The notes under the pieces were generated by a model that did no database searches, was not told the DNA's origin, and worked only from the letters and a program-made list of their open reading frames with translations. 64,000 nucleotides of DNA, taken from the NCBI GenBank assembly GCA_006226965.1, contig SBGQ01000167.1, positions 21,484 to 85,483 on the forward strand, read 5' to 3'. The DNA comes from a bacterium (GTDB lineage Bacteria > Bacteroidota > Rhodothermia > Balneolales > M1805). The first letter of the stretch is position 1. Every line of letters begins with the position of its first letter. The translations under genes were made by a program, and so were the position numbers. Positions 1-43,283 of this stretch are shown piece by piece.

Positions 1-260
1 AAACTGTGCACATCTTCATCGTCATCAGATAAAGCTAAATTTTCCTGATTTTCCCATAAACGAATAAGCTCTGCGCGAAGCTGTTTATGTTCATCGTCGG
101 TTATTAACTGATTAAATCGCAAAATTTGGGTATGAGCTAAGTTGCTTAAAATCTCATAAGGAATTAATTGTTGATCGAATGTGCGGTCGACCGTTGTCGT
201 AAAATTCCAAAACCAGGTAGCCGTTTGGTCGTCTGTGCTTTTTTGCCAAATTGTTTTCAT
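1..260 (-). CDS. argH: argininosuccinate lyase, N-terminal 86 codons only (gene runs off the left edge)
   Basis: Not in the ORF track because there is no stop in the window. Reverse-strand ATG at 258-260. My translation is MKTIWQKSTDDQTATWFWNFTTTVDRTFDQQLIPYEILSNLAHTQILRFNQLITDDEHKQLRAELIRLWENQENLALSDDDEDVHS, which fits the ArgH N-terminal pattern (W near the start, SxxAH, EDxHS). It is the last gene of the arg operon. Confidence 0.7.
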   Translation of the reverse strand, partial: MKTIWQKSTDDQTATWFWNFTTTVDRTFDQQLIPYEILSNLAHTQILRFNQLITDDEHKQLRAELIRLWENQENLALSDDDEDVHS

Positions 261-314: not shown

Positions 315-1370
315 TTAACTCTGACTCATAATCTGAAAATAGACATCAATCCCATTTTCTAATTGCTCAATTTCGATGGATTCGTTTGCTGTATGCGATT
401 GTTCACTGTGTCCGGGACCTAATTTAATTGTCGGTATTTCACCTAAAAAAGCCCAATCTGAACAGGTTGGAGAACCGAAGAAATCTTTTGCCGTAACAGT
501 GTGACATAATTTGGCAATATTGCTATTGGCCTGAGTTGAAACAGCTTTAAAACGGTCGCTTCGAACACGAATTTCAACTTCAGGTAATAGCGTTGTGAGT
601 TGATTTAAGATATTTGTGCTACTTACATCAGGAATGGTTCGAATATCAACAATAATGGTAATCTCTTCCGGTGCCATATTGTTTGCTGTGCCGCCGGTAA
701 TTCGAGTTGGTGTGATCTTCGTTTTCCCGAGCCAAGGATTTTCAGTTTCGATTTCAAATAATTCCAATTTCTTTAAAACATCAGGAAGTTTAAAAAGAAG
801 ATTGTCGGTTTTGGAAATTCTGGCAGCATGGCCTGATTTGCCCTTCATCACCAATTCAAGAAGCAAAATTCCTTTTTGCGCTAAACAAGGTTGAAGGCTG
901 GTTGGCTCACCTACAATTGCTGATTCAACAGAATCAAAATAACCTTGTGATTTTAATAATTGAACACCGTTATAGTTTCCATAGGCTTCTTCACAAGCTG
1001 TAAAGGCAAATAATAGCCTATGTTGGGGTTTTATTTTTTGTTCTGAAATCTTTTTTAAGGCTTGCACCATGGCTGTTAAAGAACCTTTTGCATCGGTACT
1101 TCCGCGCCCAAAAACTTTACCTTCACTAACAAAGGGCTCGAATGCCGGGTACTCATGGTTGGGTGAAGAAGGTACAACATCCAAGTGCGTATTAAACAGA
1201 ATGGCTGACTTGCCTTCGCCGTACGATGCAAGCAGATTATCATCTATTCGTTGCACCGATACGTTTGGAATTGATTTAAGCTCAAGCTCTAACCAATCGG
1301 CGATTTCTTTTTCTTTTGTGCTTAAACTTTCAAATGAAATAAGTTTTTTCAGAAAATCTATAGCCGTCAT
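315..1370 (-). CDS. argE: M20-family deacylase (acetylornithine / N-acyl-citrulline deacylase, ArgE-like)
   Basis: 351 aa with M20 metal-site motifs HLDVVP, GRGSTDAKG and ACEEA. Its start overlaps the argB stop by 1 nt (TAATG). Arg operon context. Confidence 0.8.
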   Translation of the reverse strand: MTAIDFLKKLISFESLSTKEKEIADWLELELKSIPNVSVQRIDDNLLASYGEGKSAILFNTHLDVVPSSPNHEYPAFEPFVSEGKVFGRGSTDAKGSLTAMVQALKKISEQKIKPQHRLLFAFTACEEAYGNYNGVQLLKSQGYFDSVESAIVGEPTSLQPCLAQKGILLLELVMKGKSGHAARISKTDNLLFKLPDVLKKLELFEIETENPWLGKTKITPTRITGGTANNMAPEEITIIVDIRTIPDVSSTNILNQLTTLLPEVEIRVRSDRFKAVSTQANSNIAKLCHTVTAKDFFGSPTCSDWAFLGEIPTIKLGPGHSEQSHTANESIEIEQLENGIDVYFQIMSQS

Positions 1371-2143
1371 TACGCTTTAATTTCAGTGAATGTATGGTTG
1401 ATGATACCGTTTAAGGTTCCGATTTGAACTATTATACCTGCTTTTGCTAAATCCATGGCTTGTTCCAATTTCACAATCATTCCGTCTGTAATCCAACTGT
1501 TTTTAATCCCGGATTCAATTTCTTTGAGGGAAAGTGAAGAGACAAAAGTGCCCGATTCGTTTTTCACGCCGGCTAATTCAGAAATCATGACAACTATTTT
1601 TGCATCAACAGCAAGTGCAACGGCAGATGTAATGGTGTCTGCGTTTACGTTTAAAAAACCGTCAACTGCTGAATACCCTAAGCAAGAAAAAACAGGAATC
1701 GTAAATTCAGCAAGCTTTTTTAGTTTATCGGAATCGATAGTTGATAAATCGCCAACAAATCCGAAATCTATCATTTCGCCATCAAAAGACTTTGGCGGAC
1801 GTTTAGTGAAGGTTAAAAGTTGTGCGTCGCCCGTTGTCACACCAAGAGCACTAATGTTATTTGCCAAGAGTAGACCCGTAATTCTTCTGTTTAGATTACC
1901 ATGAACGAGTTCAAGCATGATGTCTCGAATTTCAGCTGAGGTAATTCTTCTGCCTTTAATTTTTTGAACGGGGATGTTTCTTTCAGAACAGGCTAAATCG
2001 ACTTGTTTTCCGGCGCCGTGAACAATGATTGGGGTAAACCCGTTTTTGATGTATTGATTCACAAAAACGGGTAATTGTGACATGAGTTCGTCTTGCTCAA
2101 GAACACTGCCGCTTAGTTTAATTACAACGAATGATTGTTGCAT
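1370..2143 (-). CDS. argB: acetylglutamate kinase
   Basis: Amino-acid kinase family (VVIKLSGSVL, IIVHGAGKQV). I chose the ATG at 2143, which overlaps the argF' stop by 1 nt. The track start at 2158 is a TTG 5 codons upstream. Confidence 0.9.
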   Translation of the reverse strand: MQQSFVVIKLSGSVLEQDELMSQLPVFVNQYIKNGFTPIIVHGAGKQVDLACSERNIPVQKIKGRRITSAEIRDIMLELVHGNLNRRITGLLLANNISALGVTTGDAQLLTFTKRPPKSFDGEMIDFGFVGDLSTIDSDKLKKLAEFTIPVFSCLGYSAVDGFLNVNADTITSAVALAVDAKIVVMISELAGVKNESGTFVSSLSLKEIESGIKNSWITDGMIVKLEQAMDLAKAGIIVQIGTLNGIINHTFTEIKA

Positions 2144-3144
2144 TAAATTAAATCCCAAATGTGCATGAGTAAAGCTTTCTGAGCATGCATTCTGTTTTCA
2201 GCTTGTTGATAAATTACTGAACGAGAATGATTTAGAGCTTCATCGCTAGCAACAACGTTTCTTCTTACGGGAAGACAGTGCATTAATCGGGCATCCGGTG
2301 AAGATTCTAAATGGTGCTGATGTACAGTCCAGTCCATGTGCTGATGGCGTAATTCCTGATCTTTGTGCGGATTATCAGGATGATAGATAGAATGCCAAGA
2401 TTTCACATAAATCACATGAGCATCTTCGGCAATTTCATCTTTATAGGAGAATGAGCCGTCAAACTCTTGTGCTAAGTGACGAAAATAACGGTCGTAGTTT
2501 TGTGAAAAACGGAATTCTTCAGGACAGACAACTTCTACTTTTTGTCCGCTTCTGAGCGCCATATCAACAAAAGATTGAGGAACTGCTCTTGGAAGTGGTT
2601 TTGGATGAGAAGCCCAGCGTAAAACTACTTTACGTTTTTCAACATTGGGGTGAACTTCTTCCCAAGTTAATCTGTCTGCCAAACTTTGGCAAGGATGTGA
2701 AACTGAGCTTTCAAGGTTAATGAGCGGTACTTTTGAAAATTTTAAAGCTTCATTAAAAAACACATCCTGAAAAGCTTGGTCTTGTTGGTTTCCAAACCCA
2801 AATCTTCGAATACCGATAGCATCAGCGTAAGAGCCTAGTACTTGCATAACATCCATGATATGCTCTTGCGCTAAGCCATCCATCAATGCTCCGGGAAGAT
2901 GTTCGATATGCCATGTATTTACACCCGATTGCATTACAGAAACATTGGCACCTAATTGCCATGCTGCGGTTTGAAATGAAACTTGTGTTCTGAGTGATGG
3001 ATCAAAAAATAAAAGAGCTAAGGTTTTTCCTTTTGCCGCAGAAAGTTGTTTGTTCTCGGCGGCTTTTAATTCTTTCGCCGTATCGATGATTTGTGTGAGC
3101 TTTTCGCTTGAAATGTCCGACAGATTAATAAAATGTTTCATCAT
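2143..3144 (-). CDS. argF: N-acetyl- or N-succinyl-ornithine carbamoyltransferase (ArgF' type)
   Basis: 333 aa with transcarbamylase motifs DPSLRTQVSF, SHPCQ and HCLPVRRN. The last is the variant I associate with acyl-ornithine rather than ornithine transcarbamylases. Confidence 0.8.
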   Translation of the reverse strand: MMKHFINLSDISSEKLTQIIDTAKELKAAENKQLSAAKGKTLALLFFDPSLRTQVSFQTAAWQLGANVSVMQSGVNTWHIEHLPGALMDGLAQEHIMDVMQVLGSYADAIGIRRFGFGNQQDQAFQDVFFNEALKFSKVPLINLESSVSHPCQSLADRLTWEEVHPNVEKRKVVLRWASHPKPLPRAVPQSFVDMALRSGQKVEVVCPEEFRFSQNYDRYFRHLAQEFDGSFSYKDEIAEDAHVIYVKSWHSIYHPDNPHKDQELRHQHMDWTVHQHHLESSPDARLMHCLPVRRNVVASDEALNHSRSVIYQQAENRMHAQKALLMHIWDLI

Positions 3145-3181: not shown

Positions 3182-4342
3182 TTAATGTGATTTATTGGAT
3201 AGCAGAATTTCAAGTGTATCGAAAAACTGCTTAAAAATTTCAATTGGAGTATTTATTGGCGGCATGAGTCGCATAATTGATGCAACATTTGATGAGCCGG
3301 TAATAAATCCTTTTTCTAACAATTGTGCACGAATATCCTTGGTATCGAACGGTAGTTCAAGTCCGATTAAACATCCTTTACCATGAATTTTGATATTCAG
3401 TGCTTCACTTCTTTGGGATGCATAAGCAAATAACTCTGTTGCATGAGTCATCAAATCACCCGAAACAATTTCTTCTAATGTGGCTTTATGTGCAGCCATT
3501 GCAACCATCCCGCCGCCAAAAGTTGTTCCCAAGTCTCCTTGTTTGATATGTGTCGCAATGGATTCAGGGGTTATAAGAGCTCCAATAGGAATGCCGGATG
3601 CCAAACTTTTTGCCATAGTAATAACATCAGGATAAACACCGACTCCTTCAGAATACGAAAATGTCCCTGTTCTGCCTACGCCCGTTTGGACTTCATCGAA
3701 AATGAGTAAAGCATTATTGGAATCGCATAAATCACGTAAGAAAATCAGACTTTCTTGTGGAATAACATACATGCCATTCATGGATTGAATGGGTTCTAAT
3801 ATCACAGCTCCAATCGGAAACTCAGCGAACAAAGCGGAAATGGATTCGAAATCGTTAGCATCGGCAAAGTGAACAGTCGGGCGTTCTGATGTTAACGTTT
3901 TGTGCATCTTTGCAGAATCAGTTGCTGAGATACTTGCTAATGTTCTTCCGTGAAAACTTCCTTTAATCGCAATGATGTGATGTTTTCCGGTAACTTGCCA
4001 AGCAATTTTAATCGCATTTTCATTGGCTTCGGTTCCCGAGTTGCAATAAAAAACTTTTGATTTTGGAAAAGGTGAGAGCGAAGAGAGTAAACTAGCCGCT
4101 TCTTCTCTAATAGTTGAATGAACAACATTCGAGTAAAAAATTAATTTTGATGCTTGGTCGGATATTGCTTTTGTAACAGATTCAGGTGAATGTCCTAAAA
4201 TGGTAACGCAATGTCCGCCATATAAATCGATGTATTCTTTACCGGATTCATCATAAAGAAAAACGCCTTTTCCGTGGTCGGCACGAATCGGAAAACGAGC
4301 GTATGTTTCAATTTCGGGGTTAAAAGTAGATTCGGTTGACAT
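3182..4342 (-). CDS. argD: acetylornithine aminotransferase (class III PLP aminotransferase)
   Basis: 386 aa with CNSGTEANE, FDEVQTGVGRTG and a PLP-lysine context TMAKSLASG. Operon context. Confidence 0.85.
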   Translation of the reverse strand: MSTESTFNPEIETYARFPIRADHGKGVFLYDESGKEYIDLYGGHCVTILGHSPESVTKAISDQASKLIFYSNVVHSTIREEAASLLSSLSPFPKSKVFYCNSGTEANENAIKIAWQVTGKHHIIAIKGSFHGRTLASISATDSAKMHKTLTSERPTVHFADANDFESISALFAEFPIGAVILEPIQSMNGMYVIPQESLIFLRDLCDSNNALLIFDEVQTGVGRTGTFSYSEGVGVYPDVITMAKSLASGIPIGALITPESIATHIKQGDLGTTFGGGMVAMAAHKATLEEIVSGDLMTHATELFAYASQRSEALNIKIHGKGCLIGLELPFDTKDIRAQLLEKGFITGSSNVASIMRLMPPINTPIEIFKQFFDTLEILLSNKSH

Positions 4343-4371: not shown

Positions 4372-5340
4372 TTAAAATATATATCCCGGAAACATCAATC
4401 CGGTGGTCTCATCGAGCCCTAAAGCCAGATTCATGTTTTGGATGGCCTGACCTGATGCGCCTTTTACTAAGTTATCGATAGCAACTCCAATTACAGTTTG
4501 AGCGCCTTTTTGAACGACACCAATTTCTGTGAAATTACTTCCGGTTACTTGTTTTAGTTCAGGTAAAGCACCTTCAGTTAATCGAACAAATGGTTTGTTG
4601 TAATACGTTTCTTCAAACCATGAAAATAAATTGGGTTTTAAAGCAGTGAAACTGATAGTAGCCCAGATTCCACGAGTGAATGGACCGGATACAGGCGTAA
4701 ATTGTAAACTCAAATCAGTATTAAATAGCTTTTTAGAGCTGGTTTTTATCTCTTTTTCATGCTGATGCTCGAGTACTTTATAGGCTTTCACATTTGAGTA
4801 TCGTTCAGAAAATTGAACACCCGGTTTTAAACCAGCACCTGATCCTGTTGATCCTGTTAGCGCTGTAATGTGAAATAAGGCATTTACTCCATTTTCAAGC
4901 ACAGGGAAAAGTGCCAGTTGAATGGCTGTGGCGAAACAACCCGGATTGGCAATCTTTTTTGCTTTTTTGATGTCGGCTGTAAACCACTCTGCCAAACCAT
5001 AAGTGAAGCCGTCTTTCCAGCGGAAATCGGTACTCAGATCAATGAGTAAACCTTTGAATCCGTTTTTTTCAAGTTGATTTACAATGGGTTCGGCAGCACC
5101 GTGCGCAACGGCAAGAAATAAAACATCTAAGTCAGTTTCAAAGATTGCAGAAACAGGTAAGATTTTATTTTCAAATCGTTCGGTTAAAAGCCCGGGGTAC
5201 AATTCATCGATATATTTTCCGGCAGATTCATTTCCAAATAAAAAAACCTGTCCGCAATTTGGGTGAACATGCAATAATCGGATTAATTCAACACCTGTAT
5301 AACCGCTTGCGCCAACTATGCCAATCTTTAAAGAACTCAT
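4372..5340 (-). CDS. argC: N-acetyl-gamma-glutamyl-phosphate reductase
   Basis: 322 aa with GASGYTG NAD(P) motif and catalytic-Cys motif NPGCFAT. Its ATG overlaps the stop of the upstream gene (ATGA). Confidence 0.9.
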   Translation of the reverse strand: MSSLKIGIVGASGYTGVELIRLLHVHPNCGQVFLFGNESAGKYIDELYPGLLTERFENKILPVSAIFETDLDVLFLAVAHGAAEPIVNQLEKNGFKGLLIDLSTDFRWKDGFTYGLAEWFTADIKKAKKIANPGCFATAIQLALFPVLENGVNALFHITALTGSTGSGAGLKPGVQFSERYSNVKAYKVLEHQHEKEIKTSSKKLFNTDLSLQFTPVSGPFTRGIWATISFTALKPNLFSWFEETYYNKPFVRLTEGALPELKQVTGSNFTEIGVVQKGAQTVIGVAIDNLVKGASGQAIQNMNLALGLDETTGLMFPGYIF

Positions 5341-6374
5341 GCTGTTTTTGCTCCCAATTCATCGAGAACGAGTTTTCCAAGTGTTTCGGGTTCAGTCATT
5401 GCATTGGCAGCTTTAATGCCGATTGTATTTTGGATGTAACGAGTACCGACAATATTGTCAGTAACCGGACCTGTAATGATATGAACAGGCAAATGAAATC
5501 TGTTTTTGAATAAATGGTCTAAAGCCCAACAACCGGTAAGGTCTTGTGCAGCAGAAACATTCACCGTAATAAACTGATTTAAATTTTTATCAGCCAAAAG
5601 TGTATCTACACCATAACCACCGATTACGCCATCTCCGAATTCAACTACTATAACATCAGGTTTTAATTGATTAAGGTGTTTGATAATCCCTTTTGCCATC
5701 GGAAGGATATTGGCTCCCGTAGTTGAAATCATACCAGCTTCAGTAAACGTAGCGATGTATTTTGCACCGTTTTTCTTCATGGATTTGGTATCTCTCAATA
5801 AAGATGCACCGGTTAATTTAGCAGCGCCTACGGTATAACCAGCTTCAACCAAAGCTTTTGTTATTACTGATGCGGCATATGTTTTACCAACGTTCATACA
5901 AGTTCCGGAAACGGCAACAATCGGTACGGACTCTTCTAAATACTCAACCCATTCAATTCCATAATCACTGATTGTTGCATGTTTGTAAATATCTTCATGC
6001 TCATTCTTCACTAAAACGGCACCTAAGATTTCTACATTACAAGCAGGTCCATAAGATGGATAATCAGACTGACTTTGGCCGATAATTCCGCCCATATTGA
6101 GGATTTGCAAAGTATCACCTTTAGTGATTTTACGCGGAACTTTACCGGAATAGCCTCTAAGCGCCTGGCGCTCACCCAATGTTCCGATAATAACCTGACC
6201 AGCTTTGTATGTATGAAACTCAGCTTGAGTGTCTTCTAATTGGTTATAAACTTCTTTATTGTCGAGGATTTTACAAGCCACTAAATAACCATCTCTGGCT
6301 ATAATATTTGGGCTTATAGCTATCTGTGCGCCTAAATTGACGTTGATAGTTGAAGATGTAATCAAATCTGGCAT
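5337..6374 (-). CDS. uncharacterised arg-operon protein with a BioD/CobQ/DUF1611-like P-loop domain
   Basis: The track ORF is 5337..6521, but its first 49 codons overlap the argG 3' end in another frame and are low-complexity. I therefore prefer the Met at 6374 (345 aa, 52 nt after the argG stop). Motif VSGTCMNVGKTYAASVITKALVEAGYTV has the GTxxxVGKT spacing of dethiobiotin-synthase/CobQ/DUF1611-type NTPases. The N-terminal ~160 aa is not recognisable to me. Confidence 0.6.
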   Translation of the reverse strand: MPDLITSSTINVNLGAQIAISPNIIARDGYLVACKILDNKEVYNQLEDTQAEFHTYKAGQVIIGTLGERQALRGYSGKVPRKITKGDTLQILNMGGIIGQSQSDYPSYGPACNVEILGAVLVKNEHEDIYKHATISDYGIEWVEYLEESVPIVAVSGTCMNVGKTYAASVITKALVEAGYTVGAAKLTGASLLRDTKSMKKNGAKYIATFTEAGMISTTGANILPMAKGIIKHLNQLKPDVIVVEFGDGVIGGYGVDTLLADKNLNQFITVNVSAAQDLTGCWALDHLFKNRFHLPVHIITGPVTDNIVGTRYIQNTIGIKAANAMTEPETLGKLVLDELGAKTA

Positions 6375-6426: not shown

Positions 6427-7626
6427 CTAGTTTTGTGATTGGTATTGTTGTGTGGAAATACCAATGATCTTGCTGAAGGACGCGGCTTCGTTTCCGCTCC
6501 AGAGTTGTGATTGTTCGCCATACTGATAGGCTCCTCTGTTTAGGGTTGAGTTGGTTGATTGAATAGAAGTTGGGTACATATTGCCTCTGTATGCATAAAT
6601 GGTAACTGTTCCATGCACACGTTCTTGAGTTTTATCAAGAAAAGCCTGAATTGCTTTAACCGCTGGGTCAAAATAGAGAGCTTCATGCCATAAAATGCCT
6701 AGTTGGTCAGCTAATTGATCTTTTAATAATCGTTCATGTTTGCTAAGAATTACTTTTTCTAATTCGCGATGTGCAGCATATAAAATCGCAGCAACAGGAG
6801 CTTCAAACCCGATTCTTCCTTTAAAACCAAGAATGGTATCGCCTGTATGAACCCCTCTGCCAATACCGTGTTTTTCGCCGAAGGTTTTAACAGCATGAAG
6901 TAAGTCAAACGGATTAGAATATTCATTGCCGTTAATCGAAATAGGTAAACCGTTCACAAAAGAAATCGAAAGGGTTTCCGGTTCGTCAGTCATTTCATGT
7001 GGTGCAGGAAGATGCGGATAAGCTTCAAACGGCAGAGTATTATCGCCTTTTACAGTATTACCGCCGCCTACTGTAACACCCCAAATGCCTTCGTTTATCG
7101 AATAAACAGAAGATTTCGAGAAGTTTAAGCCAAAGTCTTTTTCAAGAGTATTTGCCATAAATTCACGTTGAAAACTGTGTTCTCTGATTGGCGTTAATAT
7201 TGATAATTGCGGAGCAAGTGCACGTATAGCAGCGTCGAAACGGATTTGGTCGTTTCCGGCGCCGGTTGAACCGTGTGCAACAGCATCACAACCAAGTTTT
7301 GCAGCTAATTCAGCAACTTTTTTGGCTTGAATAAAACGTTCAGAACCGACTGACAAGGGGTAGGTTCTGTCTCTTAAAACATTTCCTTTGATTAAATAAG
7401 CAAGAACATCGCTAAATAATTCTTGAGTAGCATCAATAATATGGCACTCACTGGCACCTAAAAGAATAGCACGTTCTTTTAATACTTCAATTTGATCGGC
7501 TTTCAAACCGGTACAATCTACGTTTACGGCAATAACTTCAGCACCGTAAGTTTTTTTGATGAAAGGGATACAAAAACTAGTATCTAATCCACCACTATAG
7601 GCAATAGCAACTTTTTTGGGGTTCAT
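6427..7626 (-). CDS. argG: argininosuccinate synthase
   Basis: 399 aa with AYSGGLDTS ATP-PPase motif and HGSTGAGNDQIRF. First enzyme gene of the operon. Confidence 0.95.
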   Translation of the reverse strand: MNPKKVAIAYSGGLDTSFCIPFIKKTYGAEVIAVNVDCTGLKADQIEVLKERAILLGASECHIIDATQELFSDVLAYLIKGNVLRDRTYPLSVGSERFIQAKKVAELAAKLGCDAVAHGSTGAGNDQIRFDAAIRALAPQLSILTPIREHSFQREFMANTLEKDFGLNFSKSSVYSINEGIWGVTVGGGNTVKGDNTLPFEAYPHLPAPHEMTDEPETLSISFVNGLPISINGNEYSNPFDLLHAVKTFGEKHGIGRGVHTGDTILGFKGRIGFEAPVAAILYAAHRELEKVILSKHERLLKDQLADQLGILWHEALYFDPAVKAIQAFLDKTQERVHGTVTIYAYRGNMYPTSIQSTNSTLNRGAYQYGEQSQLWSGNEAASFSKIIGISTQQYQSQN

Positions 7627-7654
7627 GGTTTTCTTAAAATTTCAAATTAGTGCC

Positions 7655-7693
7655 AAAAAAAAAGGCAGGACTCATTGAAGAATCCTGCCTTTT
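7655..7693 (-). terminator. intrinsic terminator inside the arg operon leader (attenuator terminator)
   Basis: On the minus-strand RNA the stem is GGCAGGA (7689-7683) paired with UCCUGCC (7670-7664), with a 12-nt loop. Nine U follow (7663-7655). The structure ends 28 nt before the argG ATG. Confidence 0.65.
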
Positions 7694-7717
7694 CAGGTTG
7701 AATGAATTAACCTTAAC

Positions 7718-7801
7718 TCATCTACATGATTCTTCTAATGCAGTTGCCCAACGGCGACGGCGCACTAAAACTGAACCAGCTATAAGAGTGTTGTTTTTCA
7801 T
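7718..7801 (-). CDS. arginine-rich leader peptide, 27 aa: MKNNTLIAGSVLVRRRRWATALEESCR
   Basis: Below the track size cutoff. ATG at 7801-7799, TGA at 7720-7718. Codons 14-17 are CGC CGT CGC CGT (plus-strand 7751-7762). It sits between a candidate promoter and the terminator upstream of argG. Confidence 0.6.
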   Translation of the reverse strand: MKNNTLIAGSVLVRRRRWATALEESCR

Positions 7802-20687: not shown

Positions 20688-20782
20688 CTCGGATGGTAGG
20701 GGTGCTGTTGCATTGGGCAATGGCTGAGATAATACCCTTTAACCTGATCCAGATAATGCTGGCGTAGGAAACCACCGGAAAT
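20688..20782 (+). promoter_or_regulatory. TPP (thiamine pyrophosphate) riboswitch
   Basis: Contains the THI-box core GGGGTGC...GCTGAGATAATACCCTTTAACCTGATCCAGATAATGCTGGCGTAGGAA (20699-20770). P1-like TGGT/ACCA arms flank it. It lies 60 nt upstream of the TonB receptor ATG. Confidence 0.85.
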
Positions 20783-20842
20783 GCTTTTATAAATAAACCG
20801 GCCAATCCTCAAAAGCACCAACTGAAACATATCAATTGGTCA

Positions 20843-23320
20843 ATGAAAAATTTAAAATCAATCTTTTTGTTTGGGATGATAATTACCATTCTGAACACAA
20901 CTTCAACGTGGGCACAATTTGTAAAAGGAAAAATTATTGATGCTCAGACAAAAGAAACGCTTATCGGTGCAAGTGTTGTAGAGTTTGCAACAGAAAATGG
21001 AATTAGCAGCGATATTAGCGGGAAATTTGAGCTCAAAGTAAAAGAGTCAAAAGGGGTTTTGGTTATCTCTTTTGTGGGATATCAATCCAAAAAAGTGGAA
21101 TTCTTATCAAATGATGTAGATTTAGGCGAAATAGTGCTGTTGCCTGAGTCAATTTTAAGTAATGATATAATCGTTCGAGCACAGCGTGTTGATGAATCCA
21201 CTCCAATGGCGTTTCAGACAGTGACAAAAAATGAGATTGAAGCGTTAAATGTCGGGCAGGATTTGCCTTATTTGCTGCAAATGACACCTTCACTTTTATC
21301 CAGTTCGGATGCGGGAGCTGGAGTTGGATATACATATATGTCGATTAGGGGAGTTGATCAAGCCAGAATAAATGTGACAATAAACGGCATTCCTATTAAC
21401 GATGCTGAATCGCACGGAGTTTGGTGGGTGAATATGCCCGATTTAGGAAGTTCTGTTGAGTCCATTCAAATTCAGCGTGGAGTCGGGACTTCAACGAATG
21501 GTTCTGCTGCATTCGGCGCTAGTATCAATGTGGAGACATCGCCTTTAAATGCTGAACCTTTCGCAGAATTAAACACAAGTTTCGGTTCGTTCAATACATT
21601 AAAAAAGTCCGTTCAATTCGGAACGGGATTGTTTAAAAGCGGCTGGGCATTTGATGCGCGATTATCACAAATAGAATCAGACGGATACGTAGATCGTGCA
21701 TCCAGCGACTTAAATTCGTATTTCTTAAATGCCAGTTACAACGGCGATAATCAACTTTTGCAAATTAATGTGTTTTCAGGTAGAGAGAAAACGTATCAAG
21801 CTTGGTATGGAACGCCGGAAGCTTTGGTTTATGGAAATTCAGCTGATTTAGACGATTATATCAACAGAAATTGGCCGAGTGCCGCTGACGAAGCAAACTT
21901 GAGAAGTTCAGGCCGCCGTTACAATTATTACACCTACGATAATGAAACCGACAATTACAAGCAGGACCATTATCAAGTGCACTATAGTCGTAAGTTTTCC
22001 GATGAATGGAATGCCAATATATCGCTTCATTACACAAATGGACGTGGTTTTTATGAGTCGTACAAACGCGATGCAGATTTTTCGACCTACAATTTGCAGC
22101 CCATATCGGTTAATGGACAATTGGTAGAATCCAGCGATTTAATTCGTCGCGAGTGGTTGGATAATGATTTTTACGGCGCAACGTACAGTGTAGAATGGCT
22201 TCCATCAAATAATACTCAAATACGGTTAGGCGGAGCAGCAAACCAATATGACGGCGACCATTTTGGTGAAGTTATTTGGGCGCAATATATGGGCAATTCG
22301 CCCATAAGAAACCGATATTACGATAATGTCGGTAAGAAATCGGATGTGTCCGGATTTGTGAAAATCTCTCAAAACGTGGGCTCGTTTATTTTTTACGGTG
22401 ATTTTCAACTCAGAAAAATTAATTACGAATTTCAGGGTTATGACCGTAACCAGAACAACCAAATTACTCCTTTAAATTTGGAAGACCCCTTGCTGTTTTT
22501 TAATCCAAAAGCAGGAGTGACTTGGAATGTCGCAGAGCGTCAGCGAGCGTTTGCTTCATTTAGTGTCGGGAATAAAGAAGCCACACGAAATGAATATGTG
22601 AATTCAGTGTTCCAAACGCGCCCCAAACACGAAACTCTATACGATTTTGAAGCTGGTTATCAAATCGGTTTCGAAAAGGCGCAAATAGGAATAAATCTGT
22701 ATTGGATGCAATACGCCAATCAACTTTTAGAAACCGGAGCTATTAACGATGTGGGCGAATATGTCCGCCAAAATGTGAGTGATAGTTATCGTTCAGGAGT
22801 TGAATTGAGCGGAATGTGGAATATGACACAAAATGTAACTTGGTCAGGTTCCGCTACGTGGTCTAAAAACAGAGTAAGTGAATTTGTGTATTACATGGAT
22901 AATTATGATTTACCCTATGTGAACGGACTTCCTCAACAAAATGCTCAGACGTTTAAAGATTCACCGCTTGCCAATTCTCCTGATTTGTTGCTTAATTCAT
23001 CACTAAGCTGGAAATGGAACGGTATTACAAGTGAATGGTTGAGTAGATATGTATCTCGTCAGTATTTGGATAACACAGGTTCAAGTGCAAAAAGTATTCC
23101 GACATTTTGGGTGAACGATATTCGTTTAGCTTATACACTTTCTCTGAAAGGAAACACACAAATCGAGTTGAATGTGTTGGTAAACAATCTGTTTAACGAA
23201 TTATATGCTTCGCGCGGTTATACTTATTCCTATGTGTATGGCGGCGATGTAATTACAGAGAATTTCTATTATCCTCAGGCAGAACGGAATTTCTTAACTC
23301 AAATTCGTTTCAAGTTTTAG
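20843..23320 (+). CDS. TonB-dependent outer-membrane receptor, probably thiamine-related given the riboswitch
   Basis: 825 aa. Signal peptide, carboxypeptidase-regulatory-like N domain (GKIIDAQTKETLIGASV), plug domain, long barrel, and a C-terminal ...QIRFKF. Confidence 0.85.
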   Translation: MKNLKSIFLFGMIITILNTTSTWAQFVKGKIIDAQTKETLIGASVVEFATENGISSDISGKFELKVKESKGVLVISFVGYQSKKVEFLSNDVDLGEIVLLPESILSNDIIVRAQRVDESTPMAFQTVTKNEIEALNVGQDLPYLLQMTPSLLSSSDAGAGVGYTYMSIRGVDQARINVTINGIPINDAESHGVWWVNMPDLGSSVESIQIQRGVGTSTNGSAAFGASINVETSPLNAEPFAELNTSFGSFNTLKKSVQFGTGLFKSGWAFDARLSQIESDGYVDRASSDLNSYFLNASYNGDNQLLQINVFSGREKTYQAWYGTPEALVYGNSADLDDYINRNWPSAADEANLRSSGRRYNYYTYDNETDNYKQDHYQVHYSRKFSDEWNANISLHYTNGRGFYESYKRDADFSTYNLQPISVNGQLVESSDLIRREWLDNDFYGATYSVEWLPSNNTQIRLGGAANQYDGDHFGEVIWAQYMGNSPIRNRYYDNVGKKSDVSGFVKISQNVGSFIFYGDFQLRKINYEFQGYDRNQNNQITPLNLEDPLLFFNPKAGVTWNVAERQRAFASFSVGNKEATRNEYVNSVFQTRPKHETLYDFEAGYQIGFEKAQIGINLYWMQYANQLLETGAINDVGEYVRQNVSDSYRSGVELSGMWNMTQNVTWSGSATWSKNRVSEFVYYMDNYDLPYVNGLPQQNAQTFKDSPLANSPDLLLNSSLSWKWNGITSEWLSRYVSRQYLDNTGSSAKSIPTFWVNDIRLAYTLSLKGNTQIELNVLVNNLFNELYASRGYTYSYVYGGDVITENFYYPQAERNFLTQIRFKF

Positions 23321-41562: not shown

Positions 41563-42669
41563 ATGGAGCGATTTCGAATTGAATATCTGGTGACTTGTCT
41601 GGATGGAGAAACCATTCAGAATAAAGCGCTGGGTATAGCATTAGAACAAAGTGTTGAATTACCGACATCTGTTCTAAACGATTGGATTAAAGAAAATACC
41701 GCCGGGAGAGTTGAGTCAGTTGAACAAACCGGCGAAAAAACGTATTTAGTAGAATGTTCCTACGCTATTTCTAGTGTTGATGGCGATTTAACACAATTCC
41801 TGAATGTATTACTGGGGAATATCTCATTAAAACCCGGCATTCAGGTAATTAATGTAGATTGGGAAACAATAACAGACTGGTTTCCGGGTCCGCGTTTCGG
41901 TGTGGAAGGCGTTCGTATCAATTTGGGAATACAAGAGCGTCCCTTGTCTTGCTCGGCCTTAAAACCTTTGGGTTATTCTGTTGACCAATTAGCTGATTTA
42001 ACCTTTCAATTTGCAACGGGCGGCTTAGATTTAATAAAAGACGACCACGGAATTGCAGATCAACGTCATGCACCGTTTATACACCGTACCAAAGCTTGTG
42101 TTGAAGCAGTGAGAAATGCTCGCGATTTAACAGGAAAACAATCTTGGTATTTGCCGAACATCACGACCAAAGGTTCCAAACTGATGGATAGATTTCGTCA
42201 GGCTGAGGATTTAGGTGCGCAAGGCGTATTACTATCTCCGCAATTGGTTGGTTTGGAAATGATGGCCGAGTTAGCTGCATCTGACGTAAATTTGCCGATT
42301 ATGGCGCATCCCGCTTTTTCAGGTAATTATTTGGGTGCTGCTGATGGATTTTCACATTCGTTTTTATACGGAAGTTTGTGGCGCGCTTTTGGTGCCGATT
42401 TCGTGATTTACCCAAACCACGGCGGAAGATTTTCATTTTCCTTAGATGAATGTTTAGGAATCAATCAGGCTGCTTTAGACCCGATGGTTCCGTTTGCACG
42501 CACATTCCCGACACCCGGCGGTGGTTTAGACCGAAATCGTATTCCTGAATGGCGCGAACGATATGGAAATGATATTGTTTTTCTGATGGGAGGCTCTTTA
42601 TATAAGCATCCTGAAGGAATAAAAGCTGCGTCAGCAGAAGTGTTGGCTGTGCTCGAAAACAGAGTGTAA
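41563..42669 (+). CDS. RuBisCO large-subunit-like protein (form IV RLP)
   Basis: 368 aa with LKPLG, GGLDLIKDDH, MAHPAFSG, PNHGGRF, PGGG and MGGS, which align with RuBisCO active-site blocks. Key residues are substituted: KPKxG becomes KPLG, KDDE becomes KDDH, and HR becomes HP. Confidence 0.75.
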   Translation: MERFRIEYLVTCLDGETIQNKALGIALEQSVELPTSVLNDWIKENTAGRVESVEQTGEKTYLVECSYAISSVDGDLTQFLNVLLGNISLKPGIQVINVDWETITDWFPGPRFGVEGVRINLGIQERPLSCSALKPLGYSVDQLADLTFQFATGGLDLIKDDHGIADQRHAPFIHRTKACVEAVRNARDLTGKQSWYLPNITTKGSKLMDRFRQAEDLGAQGVLLSPQLVGLEMMAELAASDVNLPIMAHPAFSGNYLGAADGFSHSFLYGSLWRAFGADFVIYPNHGGRFSFSLDECLGINQAALDPMVPFARTFPTPGGGLDRNRIPEWRERYGNDIVFLMGGSLYKHPEGIKAASAEVLAVLENRV

Positions 42670-42824: not shown

Positions 42825-43283
42825 ATGAAAAATCGCTCAAAAATCATTCATTGCTCCGATTATCACTGGGATGGTGTTGAAACCAAGCAGTACAAAACCG
42901 AAGGAACGAACTTTAAAGACATTACACGTTATTCTTTATTAGGTGAGTCGGAAGATGAGTGGGAGTTGAATATGCAGACCCGCTATTTTGAGGTTCAACC
43001 GGGCGGATATTCGTCCTTGGAGTATCACAGACATCCGCATTCGGTAGTGATTATTCGCGGTAAAGGAAGTATGGTATTGGGGAATGAAGTTCACGAAATT
43101 CATTTGCATGATGTGATTTTTATCTCACCGGAAACCTTGCACCAATTTCATGCAGATAAAGGTGAGCCATTAGGATTCTTATGTGTTGTAGATCGTTATC
43201 GTGATAAACCGGGTGTTCCGACTGAAAAACAGTTAGATGAATGGTTGGGCGACTGTGAAGCCAGAAAAAAATGCAGAATTTGA
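42825..43283 (+). CDS. cupin-domain protein
   Basis: 152 aa with cupin motifs GGYSSLEYHRHPHSVVIIRGKG and ISPETLHQF. Confidence 0.7.
   Translation: MKNRSKIIHCSDYHWDGVETKQYKTEGTNFKDITRYSLLGESEDEWELNMQTRYFEVQPGGYSSLEYHRHPHSVVIIRGKGSMVLGNEVHEIHLHDVIFISPETLHQFHADKGEPLGFLCVVDRYRDKPGVPTEKQLDEWLGDCEARKKCRI

Follow-up and report, generated by a model that had tools for sequence, protein, structure and literature searches.

The glutamate-acylating step that opens arginine synthesis is carried out by GNAT-type synthases (ArgA/NAGS), including the bifunctional NAGS-K, in which an amino-acid-kinase domain is joined to a GNAT domain, or by ArgJ. ATP-dependent N-protection of glutamate also has a precedent in arginine and lysine synthesis, namely LysX/ArgX with LysW. 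Succinylation with succinyl-CoA is known from DapD and AstA, and BT3761 of Bacteroides presumably works likewise. BT3761 is a GNAT N-succinylglutamate synthase encoded in an arg operon beside argG and argC; its pathway has succinylated intermediates and a SOTCase ArgF', and its role has genetic support from arginine auxotrophy and co-fitness (PMC8121099). DgcN, a D-glutamate N-acetyltransferase (EC 2.3.1.312), is acetyl-CoA dependent as reported (PMC11747546; Price et al., bioRxiv 10.1101/2024.10.14.618325), and its structure is cited by the latter source as PDB 7XRJ.

The closest described system is the Steroidobacter hypothetical protein ACG33_RS14135, which is predicted to replace ArgA, with acyl-CoA chemistry assumed by analogy (Price et al., bioRxiv 10.1101/2024.10.14.618325). 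It is encoded inside arg operons with argB, argC, argD, argF', argG, argH, and argR, it resembles DgcN only remotely in fold, and the neighboring ArgF' is without Glu92 and shows a rare Gln variant. According to the same preprint, likely functional ArgA orthologues never co-occur with this Steroidobacter-type family.

The arginine operon and gene X

The window, meaning the whole 64-kb stretch of DNA analyzed here, carries on its minus strand an arginine operon in which one gene, referred to as gene X, lies between argG and argC. The features of the operon, in the direction of transcription, are as follows.

7718..7801, minus strand: ORF of a leader peptide, MKNNTLIAGSVLVRRRRWATALEESCR; four Arg codons in a row at 7751-7762 (sequence)
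7651..7694, minus strand: intrinsic terminator with a 15-bp hairpin and T9, between the leader ORF and argG; attenuator (RNA fold)
6427..7626, minus strand: argG, argininosuccinate synthase (Pfam/NCBIfam, TIGR00032 290 bits)
5337..6374, minus strand: gene X, 345 aa, two-domain, candidate N-succinyl-L-glutamate synthase (ORF, sequence)
5337..5340, minus strand: ATGA overlap of the X stop codon and the argC start codon (sequence)
4372..5340, minus strand: argC (Pfam/NCBIfam, TIGR01850 292.6 bits)
3182..4342, minus strand: argD, N-acylornithine aminotransferase (Pfam/NCBIfam)
2143..3144, minus strand: argF', knotted N-acylornithine transcarbamylase with SOTCase signature Q93/P185/V298 (alignment to X. 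campestris AOTCase)
1370..2158, minus strand: argB, N-acylglutamate kinase (Pfam/NCBIfam, TIGR00761 157 bits)
315..1370, minus strand: M20 ArgE/DapE-family deacylase, N-acylcitrulline deacylase (Pfam/NCBIfam)
1..260, minus strand: N-terminal part of argH, a gene that runs off the window (sequence)

An earlier note, made from the sequence alone, had named these genes and had described X as a 345-aa ORF whose stop overlaps the argC start and which contains the motif GTCMNVGKT. The gene names were confirmed by Pfam and NCBIfam for argG, argC, argD, the knotted argF', argB, and the M20 deacylase, and by sequence for the argH N-terminus, which matches the Lyase_1 genes that follow argE in related loci. 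The ORF of X is real, its junction with argC is as described, and the motif occupies residues 157-165 (window 5880-5906). The product of gene X is 100% identical to a protein from a metagenome-assembled genome annotated as "hypothetical protein EP331_14245". ATG 6374 is the best start codon of X, because 21 homologues begin to align about 8-12 residues ahead of a motif that reads ADIIASS in these proteins and corresponds to DLITSS (residues 3-8) in X. A longer reading of 394 aa from ATG 6521 was rejected; it would run 95 nt into argG, and the homologues do not reach its additional N-terminal residues.

The operon provides for all arginine steps from ArgB to ArgH and lacks an assigned gene for glutamate N-acylation alone; X is its sole unassigned gene. 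The same note had stated that no ArgA, ArgJ, or GNAT protein is encoded in the operon. Pfam scans within the 64-kb window bore this out for the operon and gave the same result for 30 other ORFs. No GNAT (Acetyltransf), NAGS, or ArgJ model of Pfam or NCBIfam matched X or any of 80 family members.

Arginine leader peptide and attenuator

Leader ORFs with a run of Arg codons precede argG in 63 of 73 related loci, compared with a background of 3-24%. The RNA of the attenuator region folds with -57.5 kcal/mol (z = -4.85), and no Rfam family matches it. A scan for sigma-70 promoters and terminators gave nothing above shuffled expectation; the attenuator hairpin was missed by the same scan. Arginine is predicted to switch the operon off through this Arg-codon leader-peptide attenuator.

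Distribution and gene neighborhood of the X family

Homologues of X are numerous. One search returned 448 matches, and an exhaustive search found 1603 cluster representatives at E<=1e-3. The earlier note had asked whether the neighborhood of X is kept in related genomes. Arg linkage is indeed kept: an X homologue lies among arg genes in 86/86 fetched loci, which are mostly from Balneolales and Rhodothermales and in which the gene order recurs, and also in four look-ups of homologues with 29-40% identity from other lineages. The named distant relatives belong to Acidobacteriota, Planctomycetota, and Gemmatimonadales. X is also present in complete genomes, among them Rubrivirga NZ_CP177355 and NZ_CP177357, and AP024675. 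Where both genes could be placed, argC directly follows X in 82/82 loci. The two genes overlap in some form in 50 of these loci and by an identical 4 nt in 45. Such tight or overlapping junctions suggest that X is co-expressed with the rest of the pathway. No other ORF recurs in the 86 related operons, and no GNAT, ArgA, or ArgJ was found within the operons of the related loci, which were fetched with up to 10 kb of sequence on each side.

Among the homologues from other lineages, two loci (L084 and L085) have the order argR-X-argC-argB-argG-argH, and a third (L086) has argR-argG-argH-X-argC-argF-argB. In all three, the M20 gene is absent within about 9 kb on either side of X. A further locus (L092) reads argG-X-argH-M20-?-OTC-carAB. 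In one lineage (L087-L090), a single ORF of 673 aa contains both a full-length X (34% identity, E 5e-62) and an amino-acid-kinase domain of the ArgB/NAGS type; four independent metagenome contigs carry this ORF in identical form. By analogy, the fusion recalls classical NAGS, in which a kinase domain is likewise combined with an acyltransferase domain, although in the fusion the domain order is reversed, X has no GNAT domain, and the X of the window stands alone. An apparent 687-aa X-ArgC fusion (P0263) was set aside as a frameshifted or low-complexity gene call.

The hallmarks of the ACG33_RS14135 family recur in X, namely location in arg clusters (86/86 loci and the four distant ones) and an adjacent ArgF' without Glu at position 92. 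On the strength of these common hallmarks, X and ACG33_RS14135 very probably belong to the same family. The Steroidobacter protein itself was not among the X homologues in the homologue searches, the genome-collection scan, or the cluster look-ups. The window operon differs in having an M20 ArgE-type deacylase, whereas S. denitrificans is reported to be without one.

Domain architecture and family relationships

The AlphaFold (AF2) model of X has a pLDDT of 91.2 and shows two domains, which with their conserved residues are placed as follows.

5931..6374, minus strand: N-terminal all-beta domain, residues 1-148 (DSSP of models)
6168..6170, minus strand: R69 of the N-terminal domain, invariant (conservation)
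5340..5930, minus strand: C-terminal P-loop domain of BioD/SRP/HypB/MobB (SIMIBI-like) type, residues 149-345 (Foldseek, profiles)
5880..5906, minus strand: Walker A-like loop G157-T-C-M-N-V-G163-K164-T165 with BioD spacing (sequence)
5817..5819, minus strand: K186 in the AAKLTG motif, an invariant second lysine (80 members and a 10-sequence cross-branch alignment)
5640..5642, minus strand: E245 in VVEFGDG, an invariant Walker-B-like acidic residue (80 members and the 10-sequence alignment)

The earlier note had found the N-terminal part of about 160 aa unrecognizable, and database searches agree. Residues 1-148 have no recognizable relative in the PDB by Foldseek (best E 0.9, TM<=0.24), and no Pfam model matches this domain in any of 80 members. 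Modeled alone, the domain has a pLDDT of 88. Its conserved motifs are LGERQALRGYSG, which contains the invariant R69, and LNMGGIIG. It is proposed to be the glutamate-binding and catalytic domain, with R69 as a candidate ligand for the glutamate carboxylate.

The C-terminal domain matched SRP54/FtsY, BioD (1dts), HypB, and MeaB in a Foldseek search of the PDB, with E values of 2e-6 to 2e-4 and a probability of 1.00. The DUF1611 structure 2OBN ranked 38th (E 1.7e-4), and 7XRJ fell outside the top 50. PDB searches with profiles of 22 and 80 sequences gave matches to FtsY and BioD at about 1e-4 over the P-loop stretches alone, and reached neither 2OBN nor 7XRJ. All of 80 diverse members have G163 and K164, and at least 90% have T165. 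The P-loop of X aligns to that of M. tuberculosis BioD, and K186 aligns with the CKPVQTG lysine of BioD, which we take to be the catalytic Lys37 of E. coli BioD. The domain therefore combines a Walker A GK[ST] motif, BioD spacing (GTxxxVGKT), a second lysine after beta-2, an acidic residue in a motif resembling the VxEGxGG-like one of BioD/CobB/CobQ, and an alpha/beta fold. The assignment is at the superfamily level, because family cutoffs were not reached (the bioD model scores 18.9 against 83.3 bits); X further differs from BioD by the extra 148-residue beta domain.

No curated Pfam or NCBIfam model claims X, and matches were limited to sub-threshold P-loop models (CbiA, MobB, DUF1611_C, bioD, and CobB/Q). 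The HMM search proposed in the earlier note thus gave no above-cutoff match to any family. That note had also placed X in a BioD/CobQ/DUF1611 branch and had named DgcN as a reported glutamate N-acetyltransferase. The statement on DgcN was correct, its substrate being D-glutamate. The BioD-type spacing and the superfamily fold stood as well, and membership in DUF1611 did not. PF07755 gives X 17.5 bits where 25 are required, and covers only residues 149-184 (about 36 residues); the scores of CbiA, MobB, and BioD are about as high. In the set of 80 diverse members, PF07755 matches 24 at E<0.01 (best 2.7e-6), which is not above the numbers for CbiA (33) and MobB (30), and the DUF1611 N-terminal model PF17396 matches 0/80. 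A DUF1611 protein such as DgcN presumably combines PF17396 with PF07755. X would share with DgcN the acylation of the glutamate amino group, and the C-terminal domains of both are P-loop domains of one broad class. Relatives of X are labeled "DUF1611 domain-containing" in some databases. In contrast to DgcN, X has a sub-threshold PF07755 match, no PF17396, and an all-beta N-terminal domain without a PDB match. DgcN is moreover catabolic and handles D-glutamate and acetyl, whereas X is proposed to act on L-glutamate with succinyl in anabolic arginine synthesis. The link between X and DgcN is weak. Plasmid proteins annotated as "DUF1611 domain-containing" were examined as a possible link to true DUF1611. 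Their architecture is that of X, with a sub-cutoff PF07755 match and no PF17396; they are paralogues of X and not such a link.

The fold class is common to HypB, MeaB, MobB, and SRP GTPases, which raises a different reading of X. It could be a non-catalytic accessory NTPase, either a metallochaperone of the M20 enzyme (like HypB, UreG, and MeaB) or a scaffold or regulator that passes N-acyl-glutamyl phosphate from ArgB to ArgC. The strictly conserved adjacency to and overlap with argC would suit an accessory role. Under this reading the first step would be left without a candidate in these operons. Likely functional ArgA orthologues are, moreover, never found alongside the Steroidobacter-type family (Price et al., bioRxiv 10.1101/2024.10.14.618325). 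A chaperone of the M20 enzyme also does not suit the three clusters that have no M20 gene near X. Furthermore, the N-terminal 148 residues, with an invariant Arg and Gly-rich loops, resemble a small-molecule site, an NKxD-type guanine motif is not evident in the conserved-column lists, and the kinase-type fusion parallels NAGS. An accessory role has a very slim chance of being correct.

ArgF' and the acyl group

In AOTCase the signature positions 92/185/302 read E92/N185/K302, whereas SOTCases have A/S/P/V/Q, P, and V/I/E, a list that explicitly includes Gln (PMC4581275). The ArgF' of the window reads Q93/P185/V298 when aligned to the X. campestris AOTCase, which is a full SOTCase signature. 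Among 63 complete ArgF' proteins encoded beside X homologues, the triads are APV in 31, TPV in 25, QPV in 5, SPV in 1, and PPE in 1, and none of the 63 has the acetyl triad E/N/K. Position 92 alone could be read in 66 neighboring ArgF' proteins (A 33, T 26, Q 5, S 1, P 1, E 0). The Thr of 25 proteins at the first signature position is outside the published SOTCase list. To our knowledge, neither Gln nor Thr at position 92 has been tested experimentally. The NCBIfam N-acetylornithine carbamoyltransferase model passes on the window ArgF' (315.8 against 288 bits), and automated annotation mislabels these neighboring ArgF' proteins as the acetyl type.

This passing score, together with the Gln of this clade and the Thr of 25 loci at position 92, could alternatively mean that X makes another N-acyl-glutamate (N-acetyl-, N-malonyl-, N-glutaryl-, or N-carbamoyl-) and that the pathway is not a succinyl one. 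BioD-type chemistry handles carbamates, and paralogues of X occur beside carbamoyltransferases. Against this, all three ArgF' positions fit the SOTCase pattern and none fits AOTCase, with Gln being part of the published list (PMC4581275), and Price et al. (bioRxiv 10.1101/2024.10.14.618325) likewise conclude in favor of succinyl. A different acyl group is considered improbable. If X is the first-step enzyme, succinyl is the quite likely acyl group.

Paralogues outside arginine synthesis and the acyl donor

In natural-product-like clusters, paralogues of X adjoin a carbamoyltransferase; one of these clusters also has an M20 peptidase. By analogy with the arginine operon, these clusters seem to follow the same protect-carbamoylate-deprotect logic. 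More distant paralogues adjoin ATP-grasp ligases, and PEP-mutase genes are also found as neighbors.

The nearest sequence relatives of the X P-loop region are BioD, CobB/CobQ, Mur-type ligases, and cyanophycin synthetase. All of these are ATP-dependent C-N ligases rather than CoA-dependent transferases. X may be an ATP-dependent ligase that converts free succinate, or some other acid, into an acyl phosphate and joins the acyl group to the amino group of glutamate, with no CoA thioester involved. The invariant P-loop lysine, the conserved P-loop threonine, K186, which aligns with the BioD lysine, and E245 in VxExGDG correspond to what we assume to be the Mg-ATP apparatus of BioD. The sub-threshold HMM matches of 80 members point the same way (bioD in 33, CobB/CobQ in 24/17, and also cyanophycin synthetase and MurE), as do the top fold matches of X, which are NTPases, and the ATP-grasp ligases beside distant paralogues. 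These conserved residues are nevertheless compatible with either donor, because P-loops can also bind the 3'-phospho-ADP part of CoA. The sole characterized remote relative, DgcN, is moreover reported to be acetyl-CoA dependent (EC 2.3.1.312). An ATP-dependent mechanism is rated as unlikely. If it were correct, X would represent a third class of enzymes that N-protect glutamate, unrelated in structure to GNAT/ArgJ and LysW/ArgX, namely a succinate-glutamate ligase built from a previously unseen beta domain and a BioD-like P-loop; that it is such a class is equally doubtful. The paralogues near ATP-grasp, carbamoyltransferase, and PEP-mutase genes would then form a general "N-capping" module of natural-product pathways.

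Proposed function

The earlier note had hypothesized that X supplies the missing first step of the pathway. This hypothesis gains computational support from the arg linkage, the overlap with argC, the lack of any other recurrent gene, the kinase fusion, and what appears to be an identical proposal reached independently by Price et al. (bioRxiv 10.1101/2024.10.14.618325). We regard it as highly probable that X is the first-step enzyme. That X forms succinylglutamate, whatever the donor, is a claim we hold with reasonable confidence. Granting both the first step and succinyl, a CoA thioester is the somewhat favored donor.

In the proposed mechanism, X would succinylate L-glutamate at its alpha-amino group, giving N-succinyl-L-glutamate, which would then be processed by ArgB, ArgC, ArgD, the SOTCase-type ArgF', and the M20 deacylase of the same operon. 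X would in this way replace the GNAT-type synthases (ArgA/NAGS, and BT3761 in Bacteroides) and ArgJ. The C-terminal P-loop domain, through G163, K164, T165, K186, D195, and E245, may bind the nucleotide-diphosphate part of the acyl donor, most likely succinyl-CoA by analogy with the remotely related, acetyl-CoA-dependent DgcN. The N-terminal beta domain, with the invariant R69 and its glycine-rich loops, is predicted to hold L-glutamate at the domain interface. The reaction would be that of BT3761, with the same succinylated intermediates and a SOTCase ArgF'; BT3761 differs in its unrelated GNAT fold and in its genetic support, the role of X being a predicted one.

This assignment is of limited novelty, since the 2024-2026 preprint already ascribes the role to a family that is very probably this one. 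The present analysis contributes the N-terminal fold without a PDB match, the fusion to a kinase domain, the attenuator, the paralogues that lie outside arginine synthesis, and the question of the donor. Automated annotation leaves gene X, which is found in Balneolales and Rhodothermales, as "hypothetical". If the activity is confirmed, it would settle whether a P-loop enzyme N-acylates amino acids via a CoA thioester or ATP. It would also give a function to a family of more than 1000 cluster representatives and close a gap that recurs when the metabolism of abundant bacteria from soil, marine, and hypersaline habitats is reconstructed.

Arginine operon and position of X

The arginine operon is carried on the minus strand, and X, an unassigned ORF of 345 amino acids, lies between argG and argC.

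7626..6427, minus: argG (Pfam/NCBIfam)
6374..5337, minus: X, unassigned ORF
5340..4372, minus: argC (Pfam/NCBIfam)
4342..3182, minus: argD (Pfam/NCBIfam)
3144..2143, minus: argF', knotted (Pfam/NCBIfam)
2158..1370, minus: argB (Pfam/NCBIfam)
1370..315, minus: M20 ArgE/DapE-type deacylase (Pfam/NCBIfam)
260..1, minus: argH, start of gene (sequence)

The stop codon of X overlaps the argC start in an ATGA read in the window sequence, and GTCMNVGKT occupies residues 157-165. The ATG at 6374 was taken as the start of X because its homologues begin only 8-12 residues ahead of a conserved N-terminal motif. A longer reading of 394 amino acids, which would overlap argG by 95 nt, was rejected. As an earlier note had claimed, the operon lacks a GNAT, ArgA or ArgJ, and none was found among the 30 other ORFs of the window.

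ArgB kinases usually carry a K-x-G-G phosphate-binding motif. By our reading, KLSG takes its place in the ArgB of this operon (1370-2158, minus), which passes TIGR00761 narrowly (157.1 bits, cutoff 151.3). This deviation may be an adaptation to a succinylated substrate.

Family, fold and conservation of X

None of the curated Pfam or NCBIfam models claims X. PF07755, the C-terminal P-loop domain of DUF1611, is the sole Pfam match and is sub-threshold (17.5 bits, cutoff 25, residues 149-184), and bioD of NCBIfam reaches 18.9 bits (cutoff 83.3). When 80 diverse family members were searched singly, Pfam returned CbiA (33), MobB (30), DUF1611_C (24) and AAA_26 (11), all P-loop families and all below threshold, while NCBIfam returned mobB, bioD, CobB/CobQ, cyanophycin synthetase and MurE. 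The N-terminal half of these members matched no Pfam or NCBIfam model, including PF17396. By the two models that define DUF1611, X does not belong to that family, although some relatives bear its label in UniRef and PGAP.

The AlphaFold2 model of X, built from a 22-sequence alignment (pLDDT 91.2, pTM 0.89), divides into an all-beta N-terminal part (residues 1-148) and a C-terminal domain of alpha/beta type. Foldseek matches in the PDB cover the C-terminal domain only and include SRP54/FtsY, BioD (1dts), HypB and MeaB (E 2e-6 to 2e-4). The solved DUF1611 protein 2OBN ranked 38th (E 1.7e-4, TM 0.40), and the D-glutamate N-acetyltransferase DgcN (7XRJ) was absent among the 50 PDB matches listed. 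Modelled alone, the N-terminal domain (pLDDT 88) matched nothing in the PDB (best E 0.9, TM<=0.24). On these models, X therefore combines a BioD-like P-loop domain with a beta domain that has no recognisable relative.

An exhaustive HMM search gave 1603 cluster representatives at E<=1e-3, of which 212 reached E<=1e-30. Even with members as distant as 24% identity, the set of 80 keeps G163, K164, K186 and E245 invariant, and S7, G29, E47, G67, R69, G77, P80, G96, G99, T165, D195, D240, G247 and D278 are at least 90% conserved. A cross-branch alignment including plasmid paralogues retains G59, G67, R69, G96, G163, K164, T165, G179, K186, G189, D195, G203, G214 and E245. In alignment with BioD, K186 pairs with the lysine of the CKPVQTG motif.

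Genomic context of X homologues

Homologues occur in Balneolales and Rhodothermales, with named matches in Planctomycetota, Gemmatimonadales, Acidobacteriota (Vicinamibacteria, Pyrinomonadaceae, Holophagaceae, Chloracidobacterium) and one Aenigmatarchaeota archaeon. X was found among arg genes in all 86 fetched loci. The commonest order is argG-X-argC-argD-argF'-argB-argE(-argH), together with a version without argD. In 82 loci X is directly followed by argC, with the 4-nt overlap of the window in 45 and any overlap in 50. No other recurrent gene family, GNAT included, was found inside these operons. In other lineages, at 29-40% identity, the order is argR-X-argC-argB-argG-argH (loci L084, L085), argR-argG-argH-X-argC-argF-argB (L086) or argG-X-argH-M20-?-OTC-carA-carB (L092). 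L092 showed no argB, argC or argD within the 15 kb fetched; there, a 382-aa ORF without a Pfam match (L092:10728-11876) separates the M20 deacylase from the OTCase.

In classical NAGS, the acyltransferase domain is joined to a kinase-like one. The 673-aa ORF P0175 (L087:7860-9881) follows the same logic with X replacing the GNAT: an entire X spans residues 13-356 (34% identity to the window protein, E 5e-62), and an amino-acid-kinase domain spans residues 410-637 (best matches argB, 127 bits, and the NAGS kinase-like domain, 105 bits). Such a swap would be expected if X is the synthase. The identical fusion gene occurs on four contigs of four metagenomes (L087, L088, L089, L090), where it stands alone beside a divergently transcribed arginase-family gene. 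Its kinase domain has KIAD at the K-x-G-G place. An apparent X-ArgC fusion, P0263, was discarded as a frameshifted gene call.

Acyl group of the pathway

The discriminating positions of knotted transcarbamylases are E92, N185 and K302 in the acetyl type (AOTCase) and A/S/P/V/Q, P and V/I/E in the succinyl type (SOTCase) (Shi et al., PMC4581275). Aligned to the X. campestris AOTCase, the window ArgF' (2143-3144, minus) has Q93, P185 and V298 and retains the substrate-carboxylate residues E144 and K252. The 63 complete ArgF' beside X homologues carry APV (31), TPV (25), QPV (5), SPV (1) or PPE (1). The Thr of 25 of them is absent from the published SOTCase list, and Gln is limited to the closest relatives of the window (5/66 loci), other clades having Ala or Thr. 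Because none of the 63 carries the acetyl triad, these residues indicate that the pathway is most probably the succinyl one, despite the NCBIfam model 'N-acetylornithine carbamoyltransferase', which the window ArgF' passes (315.8 bits, cutoff 288). For this ArgF', with its SOTCase residues, the acetyl name is an annotation pitfall.

Predicted attenuator and other elements

Two elements lie between the upstream gene and argG.

7801..7718, minus: leader ORF MKNNTLIAGSVLVRRRRWATALEESCR, 27 codons, four consecutive Arg codons
7694..7651, minus: terminator, 15-bp hairpin and T9 run, 3' of the leader ORF

The region 7651-7801 folds at -57.5 kcal/mol (z = -4.85) and matches no Rfam family. Of 73 related loci, 63 have short Arg-run ORFs ahead of argG; background frequencies are 3% of window tiles and 8-24% in the loci, varying with GC content. 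From its sequence, the region resembles a leader-peptide attenuator responding to arginine supply, presumably via charged tRNA-Arg, and would couple the whole operon, X included, to that supply. A limited literature search found no description of it.

Elsewhere in the window, a TPP riboswitch (RF00059, 65.9 bits; 20688-20787, plus) lies directly 5' of a TonB-dependent receptor-like gene (20843-23320; CarboxypepD_reg and Plug domains), presumably an outer-membrane transporter for thiamine or a precursor. A cupin-domain gene (42825-43283, plus) comes after the gene of a short RuBisCO-large-chain-like protein of 368 aa (41563-42669, plus; PF00016 68 bits, partial match), which is possibly a form-IV RuBisCO-like protein from a salvage pathway.

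Function of X

The best-supported prediction is that X forms N-succinyl-L-glutamate, in support of the earlier proposal that it supplies the missing glutamate N-acylation step. By analogy with the acetyltransferase DgcN and with other, succinylating transferases, succinyl-CoA is the favoured donor, and the P-loop would hold the nucleotide part of CoA. An ATP-dependent ligase of succinate and glutamate is a serious rival, because X conserves a Lys/Thr/Lys/Glu set typical of ATP-dependent C-N ligases, because its closest relatives in sequence (BioD, CobB/Q, Mur-type ligases) are of that class, and because distant paralogues adjoin ATP-grasp ligases; the analogy with DgcN and the succinyltransferases speaks against it. 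Less likely is an accessory NTPase, either a metallochaperone or a factor coupling ArgB to ArgC. It would leave the first step without an assigned enzyme, X also occurs in clusters without an M20 gene within ~9 kb on each side, and X carries a conserved small-molecule-type domain.

In Bacteroides, genetic evidence attributes the N-succinylglutamate step to the GNAT BT3761 (PMC8121099). Price et al. described ACG33_RS14135, a hypothetical protein of Steroidobacter denitrificans, whose predicted structure weakly resembles DgcN (7XRJ; E 1.4e-7, rmsd 5.6 A) and whose neighbouring ArgF' lack Glu92, with Gln in 2/70; its GapMind entry is a predicted N-succinyl-L-glutamate synthase (bioRxiv 10.1101/2024.10.14.618325, Appendix 2). 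All these hallmarks agree with those of the X family, even the rare Gln variant carried by the window ArgF'. The role predicted for X is not new in kind, as the preprint proposes it for a family that, judged from the described hallmarks, is very probably the same. The present analysis adds the failed DUF1611 membership, the N-terminal domain that is modelled with confidence yet unmatched by Foldseek in the PDB, the fusion to a kinase domain, the SOTCase signature of three residues with its Gln variant, the predicted arginine attenuator and the question of CoA versus ATP for the donor.

Paralogues outside arginine synthesis

More distant branches of X lack the linkage to arg genes. In one Aenigmatarchaeota MAG (L091:7001-8047), X overlaps a RimK-like ATP-grasp gene. 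Priestia megaterium plasmid NZ_CP085446 (L095:5905-6966) has the order OTC, ATP-grasp, TPP, TPP, X, ATP-grasp, M20 ... PEP mutase, and on Bacillus paranthracis plasmid NZ_CP116206 (L097:4863-5891) a paralogue lies 3' of a pyrB-like carbamoyltransferase. These paralogues, with that of locus L093, lie in natural-product-like clusters together with ATP-grasp ligases, carbamoyltransferases, split TPP enzymes, an M20 peptidase and a PEP-mutase-family gene, or, in the archaeon, beside RimK-like ATP-grasp genes. PGAP names some of these paralogues 'DUF1611 domain-containing', with PF07755 under its cutoff. X, a carbamoyltransferase and an M20 peptidase recur as a trio, which, as a lead, would fit a general protect-carbamoylate-deprotect module.
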